Source of the DNA: Deltaproteobacteria bacterium
GTDB taxonomy: Bacteria; Myxococcota_A; Polyangia; Nannocystales; Nannocystaceae
NCBI GenBank assembly: GCA_016709225.1
Contig: JADJEE010000012.1
Span: forward strand, 2,243,630-2,307,629
Reading direction: 5' to 3'
DNA length: 64,000 nt
Positions 4,093 through 52,823 of the stretch are shown one piece after another. Below the pieces are notes generated by a model. The model was not told where the DNA came from, searched no databases, and saw only the letters and a list, made by a program, of their open reading frames with translations. The stretch's first letter is position 1. Each line of letters starts with the position of its first letter. The position numbers were made by a program, and so were the translations under genes.

Positions 4093-4770
4093 ATGGACAT
4101 GTACGGCCACAAGCACTCGAGCCTGCCGCAGAAGACGGTGATCGTCGCGATCGAGCTGGTGCTCCTCGGGATCGCAGGCCTCGTGCTGTTCGGCCCGCTG
4201 GGCGCCAGCTTCCGCGCGTTCGGTGATTCGCCCCACCTCGGTCGCAACCTGACGCTGCTGGTCTTCGACATCGTGGTGTTCGCGCGCTACCTCGCGACGA
4301 TGTTCGTGTTCGTCGAGCGGCGGATCCCCTGGGACGAGGCATTCTCGATCCCGCTCGCGTTCGCGCTCTACCTGGTCGGCTTCCCCTTGCTCGCGAAGCC
4401 GGCGTCGACGGGCTTCGGTGCGCTCGAGCTGCTCGGGATCGGCCTGTTCGTCGGCGGATCGTTCATCAACACCTACGCCGAGTACCAGCGACGCCGCTTC
4501 AAGCGACGGCCACAGAACGCCGGCCAGCTCTACACGGGTGGATTGTTCGCCATCACGATGCACCCGAACTATTTCGGCGACCTGCTGTGGGTCGCCGGCT
4601 TCGCCTGCGTCACCCACAACGCCTTTGCCTGGCTCATCCCCGCGTTCCTGCTGGGATTCTTCTACTTCTACAACATCCCCAAGCTCGACGCCTACCTGCG
4701 CAGTCACTACGGCGCGGCGTTCACCGCCTACGCGCAGCGAACGAAGCGGCTGGTGCCGTTCGTGCTCTGA
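4093..4770 (+). CDS. Membrane protein of the DUF1295 / ICMT / steroid-5-alpha-reductase-like methyltransferase fold
   Basis: Multi-TM, 225 aa. The C-terminal motif (HPNYFGDLLWVAGFA) is typical of this family. 2 nt after the TetR stop, so translationally coupled. Confidence 0.75.
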   Translation: MDMYGHKHSSLPQKTVIVAIELVLLGIAGLVLFGPLGASFRAFGDSPHLGRNLTLLVFDIVVFARYLATMFVFVERRIPWDEAFSIPLAFALYLVGFPLLAKPASTGFGALELLGIGLFVGGSFINTYAEYQRRRFKRRPQNAGQLYTGGLFAITMHPNYFGDLLWVAGFACVTHNAFAWLIPAFLLGFFYFYNIPKLDAYLRSHYGAAFTAYAQRTKRLVPFVL

Positions 4771-5586: not shown

Positions 5587-6939
5587 TCACTCCTCGAACG
5601 GGTTCGCGAACGCGGGGTCGAGGAGGAACTCGTCGTCGGTCATCGACTCGAGGAATGCGATGACGGCGTCGATCTCTTCGTCGGTCGCGGGGAATCCGCG
5701 CACCAGCCCCGACTTGAGCGGGCTGACCCGACCATCGCCGGCGTACGGGCCCGTCTCGGTCACGGTGCCACCCGCGGCGTAGTGGTCGAGCACGTCGCGG
5801 AGCGTCGCCTTGCTGCCGTCGTGCATGTACGGCCCGGTCACCGCGATGTTGCGCAGCGACGGGGGCCGGAACAACCCGCGATGGTCTGGATCGAAGGTCA
5901 CCTCGAAGAGGCCCTGATCGTACGGCGGATAGCTGCCGTCGCCACCGACGTTGTAGAGCCCGTTGTTGAAGAACGGATACTGGATCGACCCCGGGTCGGA
6001 GTCCGCGTCGCGGTACGACGTGGTGAGGTTGATGCCATTGTGGCAGTGGAAGCACTCGAAGCGCTCGCCGAAGAACAGCGTCATGCCCTGGCGCTGCTGC
6101 TCGGTCAGCGCGTCGTGGTCACCGGCCACGAAGCGATCGTAGGGGCTGCGACCCGGGATCATCGTGCGACAGAAGCTCGCGAGCGCGAACACGATCTTGT
6201 TGACGGTCGCGCCCGACTCGCTCTCGGGGAACGCGGCCGCGAACATCGCTGCGTACATCGGATCGTCGTCGAAGCGCGCGAGCACCTCGGCCTCGTTGCC
6301 ATCGTTGATCCCCAGCTCGACCGGATTGTCGTTGCGTAGCGGCACCTGCAGCTGGTCCTCGAGCTCGAGCAGCACGTTGCTCGCCCACGTGAACGTCGTG
6401 CGATACGCGACCATGCCGAGCGCCTGGCTGTTGCGCTCGAGCACAGTACCGGTCGAGCCGCTCGGCGTCGTCTCGGGGTCTGCAAATCCCAGCTCTTGGA
6501 AGTGGCAGTCGGCGCACGACTGCTCGAGGTTTCCCGACAGGCGACGGTCGTAGAACAGATGCCGCCCGAGCTCGATCTTCTCGGCCGTGAGCGGATTGAA
6601 CTCGGGAATGTAGGGGGTCTCGAGGTGATCCGGCAGCCGCAGCAGCTCGCGAACGGGATCGACCGGGACGCCGCCGCTCGACGAATCGGCGGCGCCCGTG
6701 TCGGTCGGCACACCCGTGTCGTCGCTGCTGCCGCTCGTGCTCGTGCTCGTGCTCGTTCCGGTGCCCGTGCTGCCGCCGCTGCTGCTGCTCGCACTGGCGT
6801 GCTCACCCGCGCCGCTGGGCGACGAGCATCCGATCGACGCGCACAGCGCGAGCGCAAGCGACGTTGCCGCCCGCGCCCGCGGCCGCTCTGCCTCACTGGG
6901 CAGCGAACACCGCATCTTGATCCGCCGCCGAAACGCCAT
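5587..6939 (-). CDS. Di-heme cytochrome c peroxidase of the MauG/MbnH type (MXAN_0977-family di-heme enzyme)
   Basis: Two CxxCH motifs (CADCH, CFHCH). Signal peptide with lipobox (LALALCASIGCSS) after a Thr/Ser-rich linker. Start at ATG 6939; an alternative ATG is at 6915. Confidence 0.85.
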   Translation of the reverse strand: MAFRRRIKMRCSLPSEAERPRARAATSLALALCASIGCSSPSGAGEHASASSSSGGSTGTGTSTSTSTSGSSDDTGVPTDTGAADSSSGGVPVDPVRELLRLPDHLETPYIPEFNPLTAEKIELGRHLFYDRRLSGNLEQSCADCHFQELGFADPETTPSGSTGTVLERNSQALGMVAYRTTFTWASNVLLELEDQLQVPLRNDNPVELGINDGNEAEVLARFDDDPMYAAMFAAAFPESESGATVNKIVFALASFCRTMIPGRSPYDRFVAGDHDALTEQQRQGMTLFFGERFECFHCHNGINLTTSYRDADSDPGSIQYPFFNNGLYNVGGDGSYPPYDQGLFEVTFDPDHRGLFRPPSLRNIAVTGPYMHDGSKATLRDVLDHYAAGGTVTETGPYAGDGRVSPLKSGLVRGFPATDEEIDAVIAFLESMTDDEFLLDPAFANPFEE

Positions 6940-8014
6940 CGTCGATGTCGACGCCGAACGAGGCAAAGATGGTCCCACAGTGCGGCTGCATCGGCGACGA
7001 GTGACACTCGACGCCGGGCCCCTCGCCGATGATTTCGAACGTCTTGGGGTCATAGATCGGCGCGAGGAAGTCCACCCCCTCGAGCGCGCGCCCGAGGTCG
7101 ACCGCGACCACACCGGTCGCGAGATCGAACCCGTCGAGGTCGACCTTCGGTGTGTTCAAGAATCCGCACGCGTCTTGGTTCTCGAGCGCGAGCTCGCCAT
7201 CCCCCGCGCAATCGGTGCTCCCGATGTGCAGGTAGCCGCCGCCCGCGACCGCCTCGGGGTCCTCCACGGAGAAGTTGAACACGAAGTGGCGGTAGCCGGT
7301 CGCCCACGACCAGTACATCTCGCCCAGCGGCGACGGAGCCGCCTCCGCGCTCGTGGTGTTGATGAGATCCTTCATCACGGCCTGCGGCACACCGACGTCG
7401 AAGCTGATCCGCGTCACGTCCGCGACCTGCGTCATGCCGGTGATCACGTCGTTCTCGCGCGCGGTGCCTTCGGCGAAGGCAATCGCGGAGGCTTCGCAAT
7501 CGCCTTCGGTGTTGCTGGTGAGATCGATGAGCGAGACCTGTCCGGCATCACTCGTGTACTGGAAGTCGTTGACGTCGAGCTCGACGGTCACCTCGCTGCC
7601 GTCGGCGGCGTACATGTGCAGGTTGCTGATGTAGAACCGCAGATCCGCTGGGCTCGCGGTGTGCTCGCCGTCGGGGCCGAGCCCGGTGATCGTGCTGCCG
7701 CAACCGACCTCTTCGCCGTTGGCGACCGCCGCGAACCGCAGGCTGAACGGCGCGAGCGCCTCGCCGGTCGTGCTTCCGCCGGAGCTGTCGAGCCCGGTCG
7801 GGTCGGTATCGCTCGTCGCCGTGGTGGCGCTGGTGGTGGTGGCGGTCGGGTCTGTCGTGGTCGTCGATGCGGTGGTCGCCGAGGTGCTCGACATCGTCGG
7901 ATCGCCGGTCGAGCCGTCGGCGTTCGTCGAAGTCTCCGCGTCGTCGCCACCGCAAGCGCCGAGGACCGCAGCAAACAAAAGGGTGGGCGCGAGTGTCCGG
8001 CAGTCCATCGTCAT
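6893..8014 (-). CDS. Four-Cys partner lipoprotein of the metallo-mystery pair (MbnP-like)
   Basis: Lipobox (LLFAAVLGACGG), long Thr-rich linker, conserved Cys/His/Met/Trp-rich domain. Immediately upstream of the di-heme peroxidase and overlapping it by 47 nt (23 nt with the 6915 start). This is the partner-then-peroxidase order seen in mbnPH-type pairs. Confidence 0.7.
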   Translation of the reverse strand: MTMDCRTLAPTLLFAAVLGACGGDDAETSTNADGSTGDPTMSSTSATTASTTTTDPTATTTSATTATSDTDPTGLDSSGGSTTGEALAPFSLRFAAVANGEEVGCGSTITGLGPDGEHTASPADLRFYISNLHMYAADGSEVTVELDVNDFQYTSDAGQVSLIDLTSNTEGDCEASAIAFAEGTARENDVITGMTQVADVTRISFDVGVPQAVMKDLINTTSAEAAPSPLGEMYWSWATGYRHFVFNFSVEDPEAVAGGGYLHIGSTDCAGDGELALENQDACGFLNTPKVDLDGFDLATGVVAVDLGRALEGVDFLAPIYDPKTFEIIGEGPGVECHSSPMQPHCGTIFASFGVDIDDGVSAADQDAVFAAQ

Positions 8015-8296
8015 GTGTCGCGACGCTAGCCAGGCCGACCGCGCGCCGCCAGCGAGAATGGGGGGGCGCGAAAATTCGCCACATGCCTGGTGCCGCGTAG
8101 GCTCGAGTCGCGCATTGGGCATCGCAGGTGTTCCGCGAGGTGTTCAAGACTTGGCCAGCGCCGCCGGAGGGTCGCGGTGGCTGCGATGCCGTCGCGAACA
8201 GCGATGCCTCCCGCGTGACAGATCCGCAACGGGCATTCTCCGCCGCGTGCGCTAACCTCGGCGGAGGTCCGCCTCCGACGGGCAGCGGGTAGGATC

Positions 8297-24456: not shown

Positions 24457-25914
24457 ATGCGGAAGCGATCGATCATGGAGACCCTGTGGTGCGCATGCCT
24501 GGGACTCGTCGCGGCGGCCGGCTGCAGCGCGGCGAGCTTGCAAGGCGACGACCACGGCGGCGCGTGCCGATCGCCGGCAGGCTGCGTCGGTGACGACGCC
24601 GGCACCAGCGGTGCGAGCGGCTGGGATCCCGCCGACGACAGCAGCGACGGCAGTGGAGCCGCAACCGGCGGCGACGAGGCGACCTCGTCCGAGCCACCAC
24701 GAGGGCCGCAGCTGCCGTGCGACGTCGCGGCCGCGCTGTCGCGGGCGTGCGGCGAGTGCCACGGCGACACGCCGGCCTACGGCGCCCCGATGTCGCTGGT
24801 GGACTTCGATGACCTGCACGTGCCCGCGCCGACCGACCCCACCCGCTCGGTGTTCGATCTCGTCGGCGAGCGCATCACCGCCGACACGAAGATGATGCCA
24901 CCCGACGACGACATCACCGACGCCGAGCGGGCCGCGTTGTTGTCGTGGATCGAGGCCGGCGCACCGGCAGATCCCGACGCCCAGTGCGGCGATCTCCCGC
25001 CGCCCGACGATGGCCCCGACGTCGGCCCCGAGGCGCTGCCGTGCGAGACCAACTTCGAGGTGCGTGCACACGCGCCCGGCGGCCAGGGTGGCTTCCAGGT
25101 GCCAGCGCAGGGCGCCGACGATCTCTACCAGTGCTTCGCCTTCAAGGCGCCGTTCACCGAGCCTCGGCAGGCGGTCGCGTGGGCCCCGATCATCGACGAC
25201 GAGCGCGTCGTGCACCACTGGATCCTCTACCGCACGCCGTCACCGCAGGAGGACGGCGGTGTGTTCCCCTGCGATGTCTCGCTGCAGGTCTCGGCGGAGT
25301 TCGTCGCGGGCTGGGCCCCCGGTGGTGGCAACGTGCTGATGCCCGAGGGCGTCGGCCTCGAGCTCGGCGATCCCAACGACTGGTACGTGCTGCAGGTCCA
25401 CTACCACAACACCGCGCACCACCAGGACGCCGTCGACGCCAGCGGCGTGGCCTTCTGCATGCCGGACGAGCCGCGCCCGCAGACCGCCGGCGTGCTCACC
25501 CTCGGCACCACGAGTCTGAACATCCCCGCCGGCGCGGTTGCCCACGAGGAGACCGGCAACTGTGGCGGGCTGCTGACGCTGTTCTGGCCCGGCGACCTGC
25601 ACATCATCGGGAGCTCACCGCACATGCACGAGCTCGGCCGTGGCTTCCACACCGAGCTGGTGCGCGCCGGCGGCGTCACCGAGGTCGTCACGGACGTGCC
25701 GGTGTTCAACTTCGAGAGCCAGGGCATGTACTTCAACACGCCCGAGATCGTGGTGCACCCCGGCGAGTCCCTGCGCACTACCTGCGTCTTCGACAACCCC
25801 GGCGCCGAGATGGTGCACTTCGGTGAAGGCACCACCGACGAGATGTGCTTCAACTTCGTGCTCGCCTACCCCATCCAGCAGCTCAACAATCGCAACTGCG
25901 GGATCGTGTTCTAG
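24457..25914 (+). CDS. Secreted lipoprotein: N-terminal c-type heme motif fused to a PHM/DBH-like type-II copper monooxygenase fold
   Basis: Lipobox (LVAAAGC). CGECHGD (CxxCH). Then HHWILY, H.H and HMH...M spacing, like the CuH/CuM ligand sets of peptidylglycine monooxygenase. Confidence 0.75.
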   Translation: MRKRSIMETLWCACLGLVAAAGCSAASLQGDDHGGACRSPAGCVGDDAGTSGASGWDPADDSSDGSGAATGGDEATSSEPPRGPQLPCDVAAALSRACGECHGDTPAYGAPMSLVDFDDLHVPAPTDPTRSVFDLVGERITADTKMMPPDDDITDAERAALLSWIEAGAPADPDAQCGDLPPPDDGPDVGPEALPCETNFEVRAHAPGGQGGFQVPAQGADDLYQCFAFKAPFTEPRQAVAWAPIIDDERVVHHWILYRTPSPQEDGGVFPCDVSLQVSAEFVAGWAPGGGNVLMPEGVGLELGDPNDWYVLQVHYHNTAHHQDAVDASGVAFCMPDEPRPQTAGVLTLGTTSLNIPAGAVAHEETGNCGGLLTLFWPGDLHIIGSSPHMHELGRGFHTELVRAGGVTEVVTDVPVFNFESQGMYFNTPEIVVHPGESLRTTCVFDNPGAEMVHFGEGTTDEMCFNFVLAYPIQQLNNRNCGIVF

Positions 25915-26078
25915 TACCTCGACACAGCGATAGTGATGGGTCAGAACGCCGTCATGGCCGCGACTCCGCAAGGCGCCGTGCCGCCGGAATACCGGGCGTA
26001 TTTCAAGGTGCGGCAACGCAGCGAGGCGCGGTCAGGGCGGTGTTATGGCCCGTCACTATCGCTGTGTCGAGGTACTAG
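25911..26078. repeat. Palindromic intergenic element: 26-nt perfect inverted repeat (imperfect further in) around a ~116-nt lower-GC core. Probable bidirectional terminator or REP-like element.
   Basis: Left arm ctagtacctcgacacagcgatagtga (25911-25936). Right arm tcactatcgctgtgtcgaggtactag (26053-26078). The arms contain the TAG stop codons of both convergent flanking genes. Confidence 0.6.
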
Positions 26079-26695
26079 CCGGGTGCGGTGTTGCGGCGCA
26101 GCGGCTCGGGCAGCCACGCGTCGAGCATGCTGTGCGGCGGATCGCCCAGCGGTGTCAGCAGCAACGGGGTCCGTCGCGTCGCGATCGGCGAGGCCAGTGT
26201 GGTCTCGCCGAGCGCGAGCTCGATCCGCTTGGCGGCGCCGGCGACCAGCTCGGCGCCGCTGGGCAGCCGCGCCGGGCGACCACGCACCGCCAGCACACAC
26301 TCGATCGCCACGATGATCCGCGAGCGCTCCGAGACGGGCCACGCGCTGGGATCGTGCTCGCCCCACGGCACGAGCGCGTCCTCGATGAGCGGCAGTCGTC
26401 GCGTGACCTCCAGCTGCAGTGACTCGCCCGGTGGCAGAGCGCAGGCGGTCGGCCACACCGGCATCGCCGTCGCCGCGGCCCACGGCGCGGGCCGAAAGCG
26501 CCCTGCGCCCACGACGATGCAATCGTCGCCACCGTGCTGGCAGTGCCACCAAGCCCGAGTGCCGGTGGGATCGAGCAGCATGGGATGGATCGGCGCACGC
26601 GTGTCGTTGCGCAGCACGATCGCGAGTTCGAGGCGATCACCGCGCACACGTGCGTCGACCCGGAGCGGCACCGAGGTTGCGACGACGATCGTCAT
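26075..26695 (-). CDS. Hypothetical protein (second candidate immunity gene of the PAAR array)
   Basis: 206 aa. ATGA stop/start overlap with the upstream ORF. Protein-like composition. No signal peptide. Confidence 0.45.
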   Translation of the reverse strand: MTIVVATSVPLRVDARVRGDRLELAIVLRNDTRAPIHPMLLDPTGTRAWWHCQHGGDDCIVVGAGRFRPAPWAAATAMPVWPTACALPPGESLQLEVTRRLPLIEDALVPWGEHDPSAWPVSERSRIIVAIECVLAVRGRPARLPSGAELVAGAAKRIELALGETTLASPIATRRTPLLLTPLGDPPHSMLDAWLPEPLRRNTAPG

Positions 26696-27291
26696 GGACT
26701 CCGCGACCGCAGTCGACGCAGCTCAACCGGCAAGAGATGATCGACGGTGCTCATGATCCCGCGCGGCAGCGGATCGGGAAGCACCGCGCGCGCGATCGTG
26801 CTGGGCGCGGGCAGCTCGGCCCACGCCCACGCGGCGATCACCGGCTCGACCAGCCCGATGCCATGGCTGTCGGTGCGCGCGTCGTGGGTGGCCGCGACCG
26901 CAGCGACCGGCACGACCTGCACGCCGGCCAGCACCCGCAACACCGGCACGCGCTCGACTTCGAGGGCGGCGGCGCGGGCGATGGCGGTCTCGGTGAGGCG
27001 ACGCCCGAGCGAGAGCGTGCGCTGCCAGCCGCGCTCGGGATCGATGCGTTCGCCGCGGGGCAGGATCGGCGCCGCCGACAGCAAGCCGTCCGGCACGCGC
27101 ACCTGACCGAACCACACCAGGGCGCCATCGTTGCCGATCGACTGCACCACCGGACGCGCGCGGGGGCCTTGGCAGTCGCGAACCAACGCGAAGCAGCTGT
27201 CCTCGATCCGCAGCCGCAGGCTCAGCCGCAGCTCGCCGCGATCGATCGCGATCGCAGCGTCGAGTCGGTGGCGAGGGCTGGCTGCGTTCAT
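26692..27291 (-). CDS. Hypothetical protein (first candidate immunity gene directly downstream of the PAAR-toxin gene)
   Basis: 199 aa. Start is 14 nt after the toxin stop. No family recognised. Confidence 0.45.
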   Translation of the reverse strand: MNAASPRHRLDAAIAIDRGELRLSLRLRIEDSCFALVRDCQGPRARPVVQSIGNDGALVWFGQVRVPDGLLSAAPILPRGERIDPERGWQRTLSLGRRLTETAIARAAALEVERVPVLRVLAGVQVVPVAAVAATHDARTDSHGIGLVEPVIAAWAWAELPAPSTIARAVLPDPLPRGIMSTVDHLLPVELRRLRSRSP

Positions 27292-27304
27292 GGCTCGCGC
27301 TCGC

Positions 27305-28696
27305 TCACGGGAACGGCGACGTATAGGTGGTGCGGGTCGGCAGGCCGGTCTCGGTGCGGTAGCTGTTCTCGGCGGCGACCGTCGAGTACTCCTCGTGGTT
27401 CACCCACCGGCTGTCCCAGCCATGCTCGGAGTTGGTCGCGAGCTGGCGACTCGCACCCTCGGAGTGGTTCGCCGCGTGGTTCATCTCGTGGAAGAGAATC
27501 GCGTCCGAGCTGGTGCCCGGCGCGGGATGGGCGTGGCCGCCGGCGGCCCACGGATTGGCGGGGTGGTTGGCCCAGTTCGAGGGCATGTGCTCGACGGTGG
27601 TCGGCGCCCCCGGCATGCGCAGGCCCGTCGGCGTGTCCATGAACGCGTCCCAGTTGCCGTGATGATCGGCGACGGCGTTGAGCGGGCCGTTCGCGCCGTG
27701 GTACGGCACGATCGTCACCGGCTTGCCCGCGCGTTCGATCCGCTCGAGCGCCTCGCGACCGGCCCGCGTCCGCGCCATGCGTTCGAGATCGCGGGTGACG
27801 TCGTCGGCCCAGCCGGTCGGCGCACCGTGGGGGCTCACGTGCACGTGCTGCAAGTTGCGCACGTAGCGAGCCGCGGTCAGGCGCCGGAACACCGAGCCGC
27901 CCACGCGGAACAACGCCTTGAAGCCCTGGGCGATCGCGAGGCTGAACAGCGACGGGAACGGGATACCGCCGACCACCACGTTCGCCGAGCCCGGGCCGAC
28001 CGTGGTGCCGATCATCGGCCCCATCGGCGGATCGCTGGGCTTCGGCGACGAGAAGGTGCAGTGCTTGGTGATGTCGACCGCGAGCCGAGCCGCGCGCGCG
28101 CCCTCGATCCACACCGACGACGAGCCCAGGAAGATCTCGAACATCGGGAAGTAGCCACCGCACCAGATGCCGAGGCCCATGTCGCCGCAGCGGGCGGCCG
28201 CGCGAGCGTTGACCATGACCGTCGAAGCGCCCGAGAGGATCGGAATCGGGATGATCGGGCCCATGCTCGGCAGCGGGATCGGCACGGGATTGGGCGGCGT
28301 CAGGTTGGGCGGGTGGTTGTGCGCGTGGGGTAGCCCGACGTCGAGGTCCCACATGCGCAACGCCGGGAACGCAGGGAACGCAGGCAGGCCGAGCGCGTCG
28401 GCGATCTGGCCCATGGTCTGGGTGATCGCCATCTCGACGTGGATCGCCGCCTGCACGCCCGCGGCCAGGGTCGCGAGCACACCACCACCACCGCCGGCGT
28501 GACCATCGGCGCCCGCCGGGCCACCGGCCTCGCCGCCGCCGGAATCGGCGTGGCCCGACGCGCGGCCGGCCGCAGCGACCGTGACCCCGCCGGCACCCGA
28601 TCGACCGGCGTTGACCGTCGCGCGCTCGCCCCACTGCGAGTACAGCTCGGCGGCACGCGAGAAGCGGATGTTCGACAGATGATCGAGCACGCCCAT
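27305..28696 (-). CDS. PAAR-like (DUF4150) protein with a C-terminal HExxH domain (putative T6SS-delivered toxin)
   Basis: ATG 28696 with GGAG RBS. Two PAAR-type motifs (NARAAARCGDMG, GARAARLAVDITKHC). Pro-rich linker. C-terminal HEMNHAANH. Confidence 0.7.
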   Translation of the reverse strand: MGVLDHLSNIRFSRAAELYSQWGERATVNAGRSGAGGVTVAAAGRASGHADSGGGEAGGPAGADGHAGGGGGVLATLAAGVQAAIHVEMAITQTMGQIADALGLPAFPAFPALRMWDLDVGLPHAHNHPPNLTPPNPVPIPLPSMGPIIPIPILSGASTVMVNARAAARCGDMGLGIWCGGYFPMFEIFLGSSSVWIEGARAARLAVDITKHCTFSSPKPSDPPMGPMIGTTVGPGSANVVVGGIPFPSLFSLAIAQGFKALFRVGGSVFRRLTAARYVRNLQHVHVSPHGAPTGWADDVTRDLERMARTRAGREALERIERAGKPVTIVPYHGANGPLNAVADHHGNWDAFMDTPTGLRMPGAPTTVEHMPSNWANHPANPWAAGGHAHPAPGTSSDAILFHEMNHAANHSEGASRQLATNSEHGWDSRWVNHEEYSTVAAENSYRTETGLPTRTTYTSPFP

Positions 28697-28698
28697 GG

Positions 28699-30531
28699 CT
28701 ACGGCTCCTCGCTCGGCGGCGCGATCGCCCCGTGTCGGCGTGCGGACTCGATCTCGCGCTTCTTGGCGGCACCCATGCCGAGCTTGTCGAACACCCGCGC
28801 CTTGCGCTGGAGGATGTCGGCGCGCGAGCTGTCGGCGGCATCGCCGAAGGTCTCGGGGACCGCGTTGCAGCAGGCCAGCGCGCGATCGAACTCGACCACG
28901 GCGTCGACGCGACGCCCGGCCTTGGCGTGCGACTCGGCGATCCACGTGCGCGCGTACGCTTCGGCGAGGTGGTTGCGCATGTTGGCGTAGTACTTGGCCG
29001 CGATCGTGTAGCGCTCGATCGCTCGATCGCAGGCGCCGACCATGAAGTCGCAGTGACCGATGCCGGTCATGCCACTGGCCGCGAGCACGGCGTGGTCGTG
29101 CTCGACCGCGACCTCGACGCAGCGGGCGTACGCCTCCATCGCCTTGTCGAACGCGGCGCAGTGGTACAGCGCGCCGCCCATCCCGTACCACGCGCTGGCG
29201 ATCTCGATCGGCTCCTCGGTCGCGTGCGCGAGCTCGAGGCTCTCGATCTGCAGGGCCATGCCGCGCTCGGGATCGCCATTGTGCATGCGATAGGCGGCCA
29301 GCGCCGAGAGGCACCGCAGTCGTTCGATGGTCGGCAGCTCAGGCTGGGCGAGCTTGTCGGTCAGGCCCTTCTCGATCACTGGACCGTCGATGCGAAAGTC
29401 GAGGGTTCGCATCACCGCGCGCAAGGGCGCGCCAGCGAGGCGCTCGACGCCGGTGGCAACGGCGCACACACGGACCTTCGCGCTCACCAGTACACGGGCG
29501 AGTCGCGCCAGCGAGGCGAGGAACTCCTGCTGCTCGCCCGGTGGCACCTCGTCGTCGATCGCAGCGGCGAGCACGACGATGAGCTCCTGCTCGGGGTCGA
29601 GCACGGTGCGTTGCACCCGGAGCAACAGCTGCGCGAAATGGACCTCGGCACCGTGGCGCCCGATCGGAGCGGCGATCTCCGCCAACAGTGCAGCGGTGCG
29701 ATCACCTCGACCCACGCGCTCGGCGTGGGCGTGGACCTGGCGCACGACCGCCTCGGCGACGCGACCATAGAAGTGAATCGGCCGCCAGAACCTGACCTCC
29801 TCGGCATGGACGACCAGCGCGCGGTTGGCCAGCCCGGCCTCGATCAACGCCGAGACCAGCCACGCCTGCCCGCGGCGCGGCGCGTCATAGACCAGCATGC
29901 GCGGCAGCGGATCGATCATGGCGTGGCGGATCGTCGCGCCGATGGCCGCCGCGTCGCCCTGCCGCAGCGCGACCACGCGCGGCCGCGCGACCTCGACGTC
30001 GCGCACGATGCCCGCACTCGGCTCGACCATCAGCAGCAGCTTGAAGCGACCGCTCTCGGTCGCCTCGGTGATCCGGCCGAGCGTCGCTGCGAGCTCGAGC
30101 GAGCGCGCGTCCTCGCGATCGATCGACAGCACCATCACCACGCCCTCGACGAAGGGGTCGAACGCGAGCGCCGATTGCTCGGCGTACTCGGCCAGCAGCT
30201 GCTCGATCGTGCGACCGCGGGAGCCCGCACGCGGATCGAACGGTGGCGGCGGCTCGATCGTGATCTCGGCCGCGGCGGCCTCGCGCACGGCGGCATCGAC
30301 TGCCGCGGCGATTGCCTCGCCGATCGCCGCGCAGTACGACGCGCCATCGACGAAGCGATCGTCCATCGCCGCCCACAGCCGCCGACCATCGTCGGCGAGC
30401 CCGGCGAGCAGCTTCGCCGCCGCGGCCCGCTGATCCGCTGCGGCGCGCAGCTCGAGCACCACCGCGTCGGGCTCGGCGAGGAACCCGTGGATGGCAGTGA
30501 TGCGCGACTGCACGTACTCGGCGAGCGGCAT
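28699..30531 (-). CDS. Large (610 aa) cytoplasmic alpha-helical protein with a TPR-like C-terminus, hypothetical. Possible adaptor/chaperone of the downstream PAAR protein.
   Basis: ATG 30531. Ends 2 nt before the PAAR-gene start. No signal peptide. No catalytic motif recognised. Confidence 0.6.
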   Translation of the reverse strand: MPLAEYVQSRITAIHGFLAEPDAVVLELRAAADQRAAAAKLLAGLADDGRRLWAAMDDRFVDGASYCAAIGEAIAAAVDAAVREAAAAEITIEPPPPFDPRAGSRGRTIEQLLAEYAEQSALAFDPFVEGVVMVLSIDREDARSLELAATLGRITEATESGRFKLLLMVEPSAGIVRDVEVARPRVVALRQGDAAAIGATIRHAMIDPLPRMLVYDAPRRGQAWLVSALIEAGLANRALVVHAEEVRFWRPIHFYGRVAEAVVRQVHAHAERVGRGDRTAALLAEIAAPIGRHGAEVHFAQLLLRVQRTVLDPEQELIVVLAAAIDDEVPPGEQQEFLASLARLARVLVSAKVRVCAVATGVERLAGAPLRAVMRTLDFRIDGPVIEKGLTDKLAQPELPTIERLRCLSALAAYRMHNGDPERGMALQIESLELAHATEEPIEIASAWYGMGGALYHCAAFDKAMEAYARCVEVAVEHDHAVLAASGMTGIGHCDFMVGACDRAIERYTIAAKYYANMRNHLAEAYARTWIAESHAKAGRRVDAVVEFDRALACCNAVPETFGDAADSSRADILQRKARVFDKLGMGAAKKREIESARRHGAIAPPSEEP

Positions 30532-50311: not shown

Positions 50312-51223
50312 TCAGCGCGGCTCGAGGATGTCGCGGTGCTCGGCGCTCATGCTGCCGAAGTGCACGTTGCCCCTGATCTCGGCCACGCTGGGGAACACCT
50401 CGGTCTGCATGCAGTGCACCGCCTTGCCCCACCGGCTCCACCCATTGCCGGGCGGCTCGTCGACGATCGGCGTGAGCCCGTGGTGACGCACGAACTGGGT
50501 CAGCATCTCGCCCCAGACCTGCTTCACGACGGCAGGGATGCTGCCCATTGCGATCTCGGAGCCGGCGACCACCTGGCTGGAGAAGCGCTCGATGGCGACG
50601 GTCTCGAACACACAGCGATCGTCGCGGTAGCCGAACGAGCTGCCCACGTCGAAGCGAAACGCGCGACGACCGGCGAGGAAATGACACTGGTTGTAGTAGA
50701 CCGCGATGTCGGCCAGCTTGCGAGCGATGACCGCGACCAGCAGGCCACCGCCGGGCACCAGCGCCGCGAGGATGCTCGCGAGCGCACCAGCGGCCTGGCG
50801 GATCTGCTTGTCGTTGTCGTCTTCGAACTCGCGCTTGAGCGTCTGCACGGTGAAGCCGGTGCCATGCTTGGTCACGAGCCCGACGCAGTCGGTGTGCAGG
50901 TCGGGCATCATCCAGTCGCGCACGCGTTCGGGCACTGGCACCGGGATCGGAATGCCAGCGACCGGGATCGTCACATAGACGTTGAACGGCCTGATGCGCG
51001 CGACGCCGCGGAATCGCAGCGTACCGCTGCCGTTCCAGGTTCGATCGCTCCACTGCACCGAGGCGGTGTTGGCCGCCATGTAGCGCGGCATGTTGGCCAT
51101 CAGGGAACCGCCGATGGCTGCGATTTGGCTCCGGTCACGCGGCGGCCTCACGCAGATGCGGAACCGGTTCATGTGTACATTGCCGTAGCCGTTGTGGATG
51201 GAGATGGATGTGAAGTCGCTCAT
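50312..51223 (-). CDS. Hypothetical cytoplasmic protein, orphan, locally lower GC (~63%)
   Basis: Clean 303-aa ATG ORF. No signal peptide. No motif recognised. Confidence 0.55.
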   Translation of the reverse strand: MSDFTSISIHNGYGNVHMNRFRICVRPPRDRSQIAAIGGSLMANMPRYMAANTASVQWSDRTWNGSGTLRFRGVARIRPFNVYVTIPVAGIPIPVPVPERVRDWMMPDLHTDCVGLVTKHGTGFTVQTLKREFEDDNDKQIRQAAGALASILAALVPGGGLLVAVIARKLADIAVYYNQCHFLAGRRAFRFDVGSSFGYRDDRCVFETVAIERFSSQVVAGSEIAMGSIPAVVKQVWGEMLTQFVRHHGLTPIVDEPPGNGWSRWGKAVHCMQTEVFPSVAEIRGNVHFGSMSAEHRDILEPR

Positions 51224-51446
51224 GGTCGTCGGGGAGGGGGACCCGATCCCAGCGACTGCGAATCGCCGGACTCGAGAGAGCTACGCCCGAGCGCGCGCCG
51301 TGCTTCACGTGATCGGGTCGGCGCCGGCGGCGACACGATCACGTGAACCGAGCGGGGGTCGTGGGCATCACTGGAAAGCTGTCATGGCAGGCCAGGACTC
51401 GCGGTGAGCCGTCTCGGCGGCCTCGCGCGACTTCCCCTGCGACACG

Positions 51447-52823
51447 ATGCGCCACCGCTCCCCCGCGATCCACCACGTCACCGTCGCGCTTGCCCTCGCC
51501 GCCTGCGGTCGCGACGACGCCCACGATGCCGACACGAGCACCGAGTCCTCCACCGGCTCGGCATCGACGGCTTCGACGAGCGTCTCCGCCACCGCAGATG
51601 CCACCGGCATCACGACCGACAGCTCGGCCGAAGCGAGCTCGGGCGTGACCGCCTCGACCACCGACGCGGGCGATGACACCACCACCACCGGCGAACCCGT
51701 CGGCCCTGGCGGCTGCGCTGGCGAGGGCGCGCCGCTCACCGATCTCGAGCGCGACATCGCGGAGCTCCCCGCCGACACCTGGTGGTCTGCGCCCGACACG
51801 AAGATGCGTGCGGTGTGCTCCGACGATCTGAGCGAGTACATGTGTGCATCCGTCATCGCGGCGTGGAGCGGCGGCGCGTGGGATCCCGTGCATCGGCAGA
51901 TGCTGATCTTCGGCGGCGGCCACACCGACTCGGGGGACAACGCGCTCTACGCCTTCGACCTGGGCACGCTCGCGTGGTCGCGACTCACCGAGCACTCGTC
52001 GGTCGATCTGAAGGACGCGGATCCCCTGCCCGATGGGCAACCCGCGTCGCGCCACACCTACGACGGGCTGCAGTACCTCACGGGCGCGCAGCGCCTGTTC
52101 GCGTGGGGCGGATCGCAGTGGGAGAACGGCGGCATCACGAACATCACGTGGACGTTCGATCACGCCTCGGGCTGGCACGACACCGGCGTGCAACCGCCGA
52201 TGCCGTTCACCTACGCCCACGGCACGGCCTACGACGCCGCCAGCGATCGCGTGATCATGCACCACGACTACGGCCTGCACGCCTTCGACCCCGCGAGCAA
52301 CACATGGACCAAGCTCGAGGACTACGGCACGCCGCCCTACTGGCCGCGCTATTCGATCTCGGGTGACTACCGCGGCGTCGTCGACAGCTCGCGCGGGCTG
52401 GTGTGGTTCCTCGGTGCGCGGCTCTACCTGGTCTACGATCTCGCCACCGGTGAGCACGTCACTGACGACTGGATCACGCAGGGCGGCGGCGCGTTCACCA
52501 ACGCCGATGCGGTCGCCGGTCACCCCGAGCAGGTGATCCAGACCGGCGGCGCCGTCGTGATCGAGGCCGCAGGGCCCGGCGTCGACTACGATCCCGCGGG
52601 CGACGCCCTGGTCGCGTGGGCCGGCGGTGCGCCGTGGCGCCTCGATCTCGCGAGTAAGACGTGGAGCGAGCTCTCGGCCGAGGGCGCCCCCGCAGCACCG
52701 CAATCATCGGGCGGCACGTACGGTCGCTGGCGCTACGTCCCCCGCGTCAACGCGTTCATCCTCGTCAACGACGTCGACCAGGACGTGGTGTTCTACAAGC
52801 ACACCGCCGGCTGCGGTCCGTGA
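51447..52823 (+). CDS. Secreted lipoprotein with a Kelch/galactose-oxidase-like beta-propeller
   Basis: Lipobox (LALAACG). Ser/Thr linker. Repeated W/Y-containing blades (LYAFD, LFAWGG, LHAFD). Confidence 0.65.
   Translation: MRHRSPAIHHVTVALALAACGRDDAHDADTSTESSTGSASTASTSVSATADATGITTDSSAEASSGVTASTTDAGDDTTTTGEPVGPGGCAGEGAPLTDLERDIAELPADTWWSAPDTKMRAVCSDDLSEYMCASVIAAWSGGAWDPVHRQMLIFGGGHTDSGDNALYAFDLGTLAWSRLTEHSSVDLKDADPLPDGQPASRHTYDGLQYLTGAQRLFAWGGSQWENGGITNITWTFDHASGWHDTGVQPPMPFTYAHGTAYDAASDRVIMHHDYGLHAFDPASNTWTKLEDYGTPPYWPRYSISGDYRGVVDSSRGLVWFLGARLYLVYDLATGEHVTDDWITQGGGAFTNADAVAGHPEQVIQTGGAVVIEAAGPGVDYDPAGDALVAWAGGAPWRLDLASKTWSELSAEGAPAAPQSSGGTYGRWRYVPRVNAFILVNDVDQDVVFYKHTAGCGP

Follow-up and report, generated by a model that had tools for sequence, protein, structure and literature searches.

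A very probable CTAG-targeting MITE at the stop codons of two convergent genes in a Nannocystaceae-like member of the Myxococcota

The window, meaning the whole 64-kb stretch of DNA that was analysed, contains two convergent genes whose 3' ends are separated by a near-palindrome. On the + strand lies a copper type II ascorbate-dependent monooxygenase-like gene (24439/24475..25914) with Cu2_monooxygen and Cu2_monoox_C domains. Facing it on the − strand is the gene of a 206-aa protein without a Pfam match (26075..26695), the last in a gene string after a PAAR and Peptidase_M91 toxin-like gene (27305-29314, −). A small ORF on the same strand, likewise without a Pfam match (26692-27291), follows the toxin-like gene, and the near-palindrome sits at the 3' end of the whole − strand string (26075-29314). 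The ORFs at 26692-27291 and 26075-26695 resemble immunity genes. A relationship as paralogues between the 199-aa and 206-aa neighbour genes was considered and rejected, as no similarity is detectable. Elsewhere in the window (5590-8122, −) an MbnP-family gene adjoins a di-haem cytochrome c peroxidase (MauG-like) gene, a pairing linked to copper handling, and this pair shares the window with the copper monooxygenase gene.

Counted with the CTAG at either border, the near-palindrome spans 168 nt (25911..26078, no strand assigned) and reads CTAGTACCTCGACACAGCGATAGTGA ... TCACTATCGCTGTGTCGAGGTACTAG. The left CTAG copy (25911..25914, +) holds the TAG stop codon of the monooxygenase gene at 25912-25914. 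It is followed by the left terminal inverted repeat, TACCTCGACACAGCGATAGTGA (25915..25936, +), which starts TACCTCGACACAGCG... and forms a 26-nt arm together with the CTAG. An internal region without coding capacity (25937..26052, no strand assigned) is an imperfect palindrome and continues the stem to a 5-nt apex loop near 25993-25997. The right terminal inverted repeat (26053..26074, −) is the reverse complement of the left, and the right CTAG copy (26075..26078, −) provides, as CTA at 26075-26077, the TAG stop of the 206-aa gene.

An earlier note, made from the letters of this DNA, had described a perfect 26-nt inverted repeat that contains both stop codons and continues imperfectly inwards. 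All of this stands: the 26-nt arms, CTAGTACCTCGACACAGCGATAGTGA, are perfect at 25911-25936 (+) and 26053-26078 (−), a shuffled window gives 0 matches to the arm pair, each stop lies in the CTAG at its end of the element, and the inverted repeat reaches 56-nt arms with 86% complementarity. The element is the longest inverted repeat in the window, and no third copy of the arm occurs in these 64 kb at up to three mismatches. The note's lower-GC core is wrong: with 69% GC the core is close to the 70.4% of the window, and it is the 26-nt arms that are low, at just 50%. Frame 1 of the + strand is open across the whole of 25911-26078 and closes at the terminal TAG (...PVTIAVSRY*); an IS870-like parent with its transposase stop in the CTAG target would leave such a frame, and no protein match backs this idea. 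A separate 44-nt palindrome at 51304-51347, with 22-nt arms that are 91% complementary and without a spacer, lies between the divergent genes 50312-51223 (−) and 51447-52823 (+) and could be an operator site.

RNA from either strand is predicted to fold into one long stem-loop, as the earlier note had proposed, with 71 of the 84 possible positions paired up to the 5-nt apex loop. The predicted fold has −125.7 kcal/mol on the + strand (z −12.1) and −102.0 kcal/mol on the − strand (z −9.0). The + strand RNA is the more stable by 24 kcal/mol, with the arm mismatches forming G:U pairs on that strand. Within the 56-nt arms all transition mismatches (5/5) are G:U on the + strand (binomial p = 0.03), and the full fold contains nine G:U pairs on + and two on −. 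Single-stranded DNA also folds strongly and asymmetrically (−71 vs −55 kcal/mol). The orientation of the element relative to the gene whose stop codon it occupies varies among loci.

Comparison with other genomes gives both an occupied and an unoccupied state of this site, referred to here as locus A. Two NCBI MAG contigs, L005 (GCA_020050275.1) and L006 (GCA_017996215.1), emerged from a look-up of the 206-aa protein; both have the element and are 99.995% identical to the window. The same look-up returned six short-read (Logan) contigs that all end exactly 28 nt into the element. The closest monooxygenase homologue, P0001, is 98% identical and is encoded on L014 and L015. These contigs have the same convergent genes with a 4-nt overlap that is exactly CTAG, and the element is absent; the junction reads ...gtgttCTAGccggg..., in a longer stretch ...gggatcgtgttCTAGccgggtgcgg.... 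Their flanks are identical to the window beside the site and ~97% identical over 3-4 kb. Relative to this empty site, 164 nt are added in the window, L005, and L006 while the flanks are identical and, judged from the aligned sequences, these bases are an insertion, probably with target duplication. The C-terminus of the monooxygenase (...NRNCGIVF*) is unchanged by it.

A more distant, 68%-identical monooxygenase orthologue on L018 ends ...GIVF-TAG within CTAG and is followed by an ordinary short hairpin, so the CTAG stop appears to be ancestral. At 1686-1762 of L018, and also in L016, L017, and L019-L021, a short terminator-like hairpin precedes a (CCCGTG)n hexanucleotide repeat, and five short-read contigs terminate within this repeat 3' of the orthologue.

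The element also occurs outside locus A. Exact 20-mer scans placed the arm in at least four other contigs (L001-L004), one of which, L003, was rejected as a copy since its 20-mer is a chance match within coding sequence on a low-GC contig. One protein search, for which the C-terminal ends of the genes preceding the L004, L002, and L001 copies were joined into a single query, returned proteins whose contigs cover loci B and C. The left end is also found in L001, L004/L042, and L036, and the right end in L002/L046/L049 and L036.

Locus B is bounded by an LTD-domain gene on one side and a gene for a SpoU methylase on the other. L036, from an independent ENA assembly, contains a complete 168-nt copy there (4231-4398) with CTAG at both borders, which is 98.8% identical to the window copy and whose two arms match at 25 of 26 positions. 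L004/L042 have a partial copy at this locus; in L004 the left arm and core equal the window over 122 nt, the flank is a different one, and the contig ends inside the element. In L029 and L030, which belong to the window's lineage, locus B is empty and reads gggctgCTAGgccatcc, with the CTA being the SpoU stop codon.

Locus C has the gene of a cysteine-rich protein on one side and that of a lipoprotein on the other. Here L002/L046 and an independent assembly, L049, share one identical truncated copy of 87 nt, and L047 ends after 77 nt of it. In L002 this is the right half of the element, identical at 86 of 87 positions; it sits directly on the TAG that ends the cysteine-rich protein gene, and unrelated sequence comes after it. 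The alignment places the loss of the other half, together with the second CTAG, between a CCCGG pentamer at the element apex and another in the flank. The locus is empty in L022-L024, where it reads ctgcggCTAGcccggcgg and the upstream gene has its stop codon in the CTAG. Locus D is in L001, an unrelated Deltaproteobacteria MAG, and holds a 47-nt internally deleted remnant with both termini kept, CTAGTACC...GCCGTACTAG, whose first TAG terminates an M28 peptidase gene.

The element is therefore found at a minimum of four unrelated loci in at least three genomes or lineages (window, L036/L004, L002/L049, L001). Three of these loci (A, B, and C) are known in both the filled and the empty state, with one CTAG at the empty site and CTAG at both borders of the filled complete copies. 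The window's lineage is filled at A and empty at B and C, a sister lineage that is 2-3% divergent is filled at B and C, and a divergence of ~3% separates the window from the genomes that are empty at A. Since sister lineages have different insertions, these appear to postdate the split, which points to recent movement. On this distribution the element is recently active and low-copy. The copies seen per lineage, at least one or two, are few for a MITE. The genome and metagenome scans used 20-mers that span arm position 22, which was later found to vary, so the family size is a lower bound.

CTAG is scarce in this DNA. It occurs 13 times in the window (at 2900, 8026, 11286, 12597, 13239, 19895, 25911, 26075, 34344, 40473, 47020, 49670, and 58572) where ~174 occurrences are expected from base composition, a depletion of ~13-fold. 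Counting the state before insertion, 5 of 12 sites (~40%) are stop codons of likely genes. As CTAG is scarce and its remaining sites are often stops, a CTAG-specific element would tend to land on gene ends. All four known insertions are on stop codons (4/4), a bias that in so few cases cannot be separated from selection against intragenic insertions.

The small size, perfect terminal repeats, apparently duplicated target, unrelated sites, and presence/absence polymorphism together identify the palindrome as a very probable MITE. It is small and non-coding, has terminal inverted repeats and a probable target-site duplication, and is present at several unrelated sites. It is considered very probable that this is a CTAG-targeting MITE that was moved in trans and duplicated its target, with both stop codons kept. 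A transposase made elsewhere, probably of the DDE type, would recognise the element ends and integrate the element at the tetranucleotide CTAG by staggered cuts, the repair of which would duplicate two to four target bases. Before insertion, the two convergent genes would have overlapped by exactly CTAG; afterwards they would be 160 nt apart, each with its own stop and exact C-terminus. CTAG is self-complementary and contains TAG on both strands, so its duplication gives an outward-facing TAG at each border. The apparent incorporation of the stops into both arms would thus be the outcome of doubling a palindromic target in which both stops were present beforehand, not of the design of the element. 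Likewise, the long hairpin in transcripts from either side would follow from the palindromic build of the element. Based on its predicted fold alone, this hairpin may alter the 3'-end stability or processing of the flanking transcripts.

The extent of the duplication bears on the parent of the element. All junctions fit C-TA-[GTACC...GGTAC]-TA-G, and a 4-nt CTAG duplication fits equally. This is because the CTAG prolongs the inverted repeat, so that TA, 3-nt, and 4-nt duplications give identical junctions. Both an IS630-like parent with a TA duplication and an IS5-like parent with a 4-nt duplication are consistent with these junctions. IS701-family elements may duplicate YTAR; a literature search on IS701 with YTAR found no paper.

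Several searches for a parent or for relatives were negative. Of the ~40 likely genes scanned across the window, none showed a Pfam transposase domain, and no Pfam transposase label occurs among the called genes of the neighbouring loci. Species-representative genomes, metagenomes, and viral contigs, scanned with exact 19-22-mers, yielded no element of greater length with the same ends; two patterns run against viral contigs and a blastn search of plasmids in distant mode gave no match. A six-frame translation of the element, submitted as one query against 5.8 billion proteins, returned no protein relatives. A literature search with the terminal-repeat sequence returned just unrelated primers.

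The few differences between copies fall at one position. L036 differs from the window only at mirrored arm position 22, with A->C on the left and T->A on the right. Neither change compensates for the other, and the pair is broken. Several independent samples share the variant of the left arm, a recurrence that explains why many short-read contigs assembled at k=31 stop at 52 nt (22 + 30). In more than 20 samples such contigs end 28, 30, or 52 nt into the element; those ending inside it are L007-L011 and L013 at the window locus and L037-L045 and L047-L055 at loci B and C. The stops at 28 and 30 nt are what would be expected where a contig runs into sequence with more than one context, and suggest further copies or co-occurring strains. 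The 26-nt repeat alone was rejected as the cause of the k=31 breaks because the arms share no 30-mer.

The low number of copies per lineage and the failure of the searches made to find an autonomous element with the same ends speak against the MITE reading. The strand asymmetry of the fold (9 vs 2 G:U pairs) is also not accounted for by a purely DNA-level parasite. A combined reading would make the strict CTAG rule a 'safe landing' on stop codons, with the hairpin then co-opted by the host as a 3'-end RNA element; this is unlikely. If it were true, insertion would regenerate stops on both strands and pull overlapping convergent genes apart. The co-opted hairpin, strand-asymmetric, G:U-rich, and 80 bp long, could then serve, for example, to stabilise the RNA, to offer RNase III a site, or to insulate against read-through from the convergent gene.

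A hairpin selected by the host from the outset, as a bidirectional terminator or as an mRNA 3'-end stabiliser or insulator, would explain why so extremely stable a predicted fold lies exactly at both 3' ends and why the G:U arm mismatches favour the + strand RNA. Bacterial MITE hairpins are also known to affect the mRNAs of adjacent genes (PMC2229807). Against this, the ~97%-identical genomes have the same genes and flanks without the element, which speaks against a terminator built by the host, and the same sequence appears at unrelated loci. The scan of 25600-26400 found no hairpin with a U-tract on either strand; the stem is followed by CCGGGTGCGG (+) and AACACGATCC (−). Neither the truncated copies (L001, L002) nor the empty junction (L014) folds better than shuffled sequence does, and such non-folding copies persist in independent assemblies, which indicates that the host manages without a hairpin at these places. 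The position-22 variation breaks a pair instead of compensating for it. A regulatory hairpin of this kind is accordingly judged very unlikely. The bidirectional terminator offered in the earlier note was not borne out, given the missing U-tract and the close relatives that lack a hairpin at the same junction.

About equally improbable is a single-strand mobile type, an IS200/IS605-derived PATE or a REP/RAYT, that inserted 3' of CTAG without duplication and brought the right CTAG as its own. The filled and empty patterns alone also fit insertion beside CTAG without duplication, which yields the same filled and empty sequences, and the strong, clearly strand-asymmetric hairpin of the single-stranded DNA suits such a mechanism. 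REPs are palindromes of 20-40 nt with a GTAG head, and REPs and PATEs have no terminal inverted repeats and no target duplication. The element, however, has a perfect inverted repeat that reaches the very termini, as is typical of DDE elements, and forms one stem as a whole, without a subterminal hairpin of its own at either end. Its 168 nt place it far above REP size, it has no GTAG head at its start, and no TnpA or RAYT domain is present in the window genes scanned. Of the REP/MITE-like repeat suggested in the earlier note, the MITE part is supported by at least four unrelated loci, three with an empty counterpart, and the REP part failed on these features.

A gene for a structured non-coding RNA would agree with the strong predicted fold on both strands and is considered extremely unlikely. 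Nothing relevant in Rfam matched 25500-26500 on either strand at E<=1, and a consensus scan of both strands found no sigma-70-like promoter. The sequence is also missing from close relatives. At 98.8-100% identity the copies offer too little variation for covariation to show, and the only pair that varies is broken. The earlier suggestion of a structured RNA thus found no support. An assembly artefact, to which the many short-read contigs that break within the element might point, can be practically dismissed, as the complete element is identical in L005, L006, and the window and a second complete copy is at another locus in the independent ENA assembly (L036).

The preferred reading, a CTAG-targeting MITE, would add a previously undescribed MITE to the uncultured Nannocystaceae-like Myxococcota, where mobile elements are, to our knowledge, poorly catalogued. 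What looks like a designed structure around two stop codons would be a by-product of palindromic target duplication. It would also be a clean example of how CTAG specificity may steer insertions to gene ends in high-GC genomes with the proteins left unchanged. Elements of this sort cause short-read assemblies to break and can pass for terminators or RNA genes, and the insertion differences between lineages are possible strain markers. The kind of element is ordinary among bacterial repeats and opens no new biological question.

Rho-independent bidirectional terminators resemble the element in placing a hairpin between convergent genes that is present in both transcripts. Their stems are 5-15 bp as opposed to ~80 bp, and the element has no U-tract, is mobile, and is absent from close relatives. 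The Correia elements (NEMIS) of Neisseria and ERIC/YPAL of enterobacteria are nearer in form, being 100-170 bp with terminal inverted repeats and one end-to-end RNA hairpin (PMC2229807). All of these are co-transcribed with their neighbours and can change mRNA processing or stability (PMC2229807), and Correia and ERIC elements share with the element a whole-length RNA hairpin in 3' untranslated regions. The Correia, ERIC, and YPAL families differ in having tens to hundreds of copies and tested RNA effects, whereas the element is found at four loci and known from sequence alone. There is no sequence similarity between them, and their target is simply TA rather than CTAG. RUP of Streptococcus pneumoniae, a MITE of 107 bp that forms a hairpin, is ascribed to the IS630-Tc1-mariner superfamily and is believed to be mobilised by IS630-Spn1 (PMC2229807).

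MITEPsy1 of Pseudomonas syringae matches the element in target. It is a 100-nt derivative of the IS5-family ISPsy2 with five to six copies, is still mobile, and inserts at CTAG (or YTAA) with a 4-nt duplication (PMC3189936). Both are small, non-coding, and low-copy, with terminal inverted repeats and a CTAG target. The terminal repeat of MITEPsy1, GGAAGGTCTGAAAAAGCC, is unrelated to the TACCTCGACACAGCG... of the element, and the test for an IS5-type repeat failed, as a by-eye comparison made just with this ISPsy2/MITEPsy1 end gave no resemblance. MITEPsy1 further differs in having a known parent insertion sequence, in not being reported as a palindrome over its whole length, and in belonging to a different phylum.

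The IS630-Tc1-mariner superfamily offers the other comparison. According to Tenzen and Ohtsubo (1991), as cited in PMC2170065, the target preference of IS630 is the TA in 5'-CTAG-3'. For IS870 and ISMt1 the target is CTAG, and the TAG within it serves them as a stop codon (PMC13630536). An IS630-like duplication of the TA within CTAG fits every junction of the element, as does a 4-nt one. The scans made found neither an IS630-type transposase nor a matching full-length element. The use of the target also differs, in that the TAG in IS870 ends the transposase gene of the insertion sequence itself, whereas here it preserves the stop codons of the host genes.
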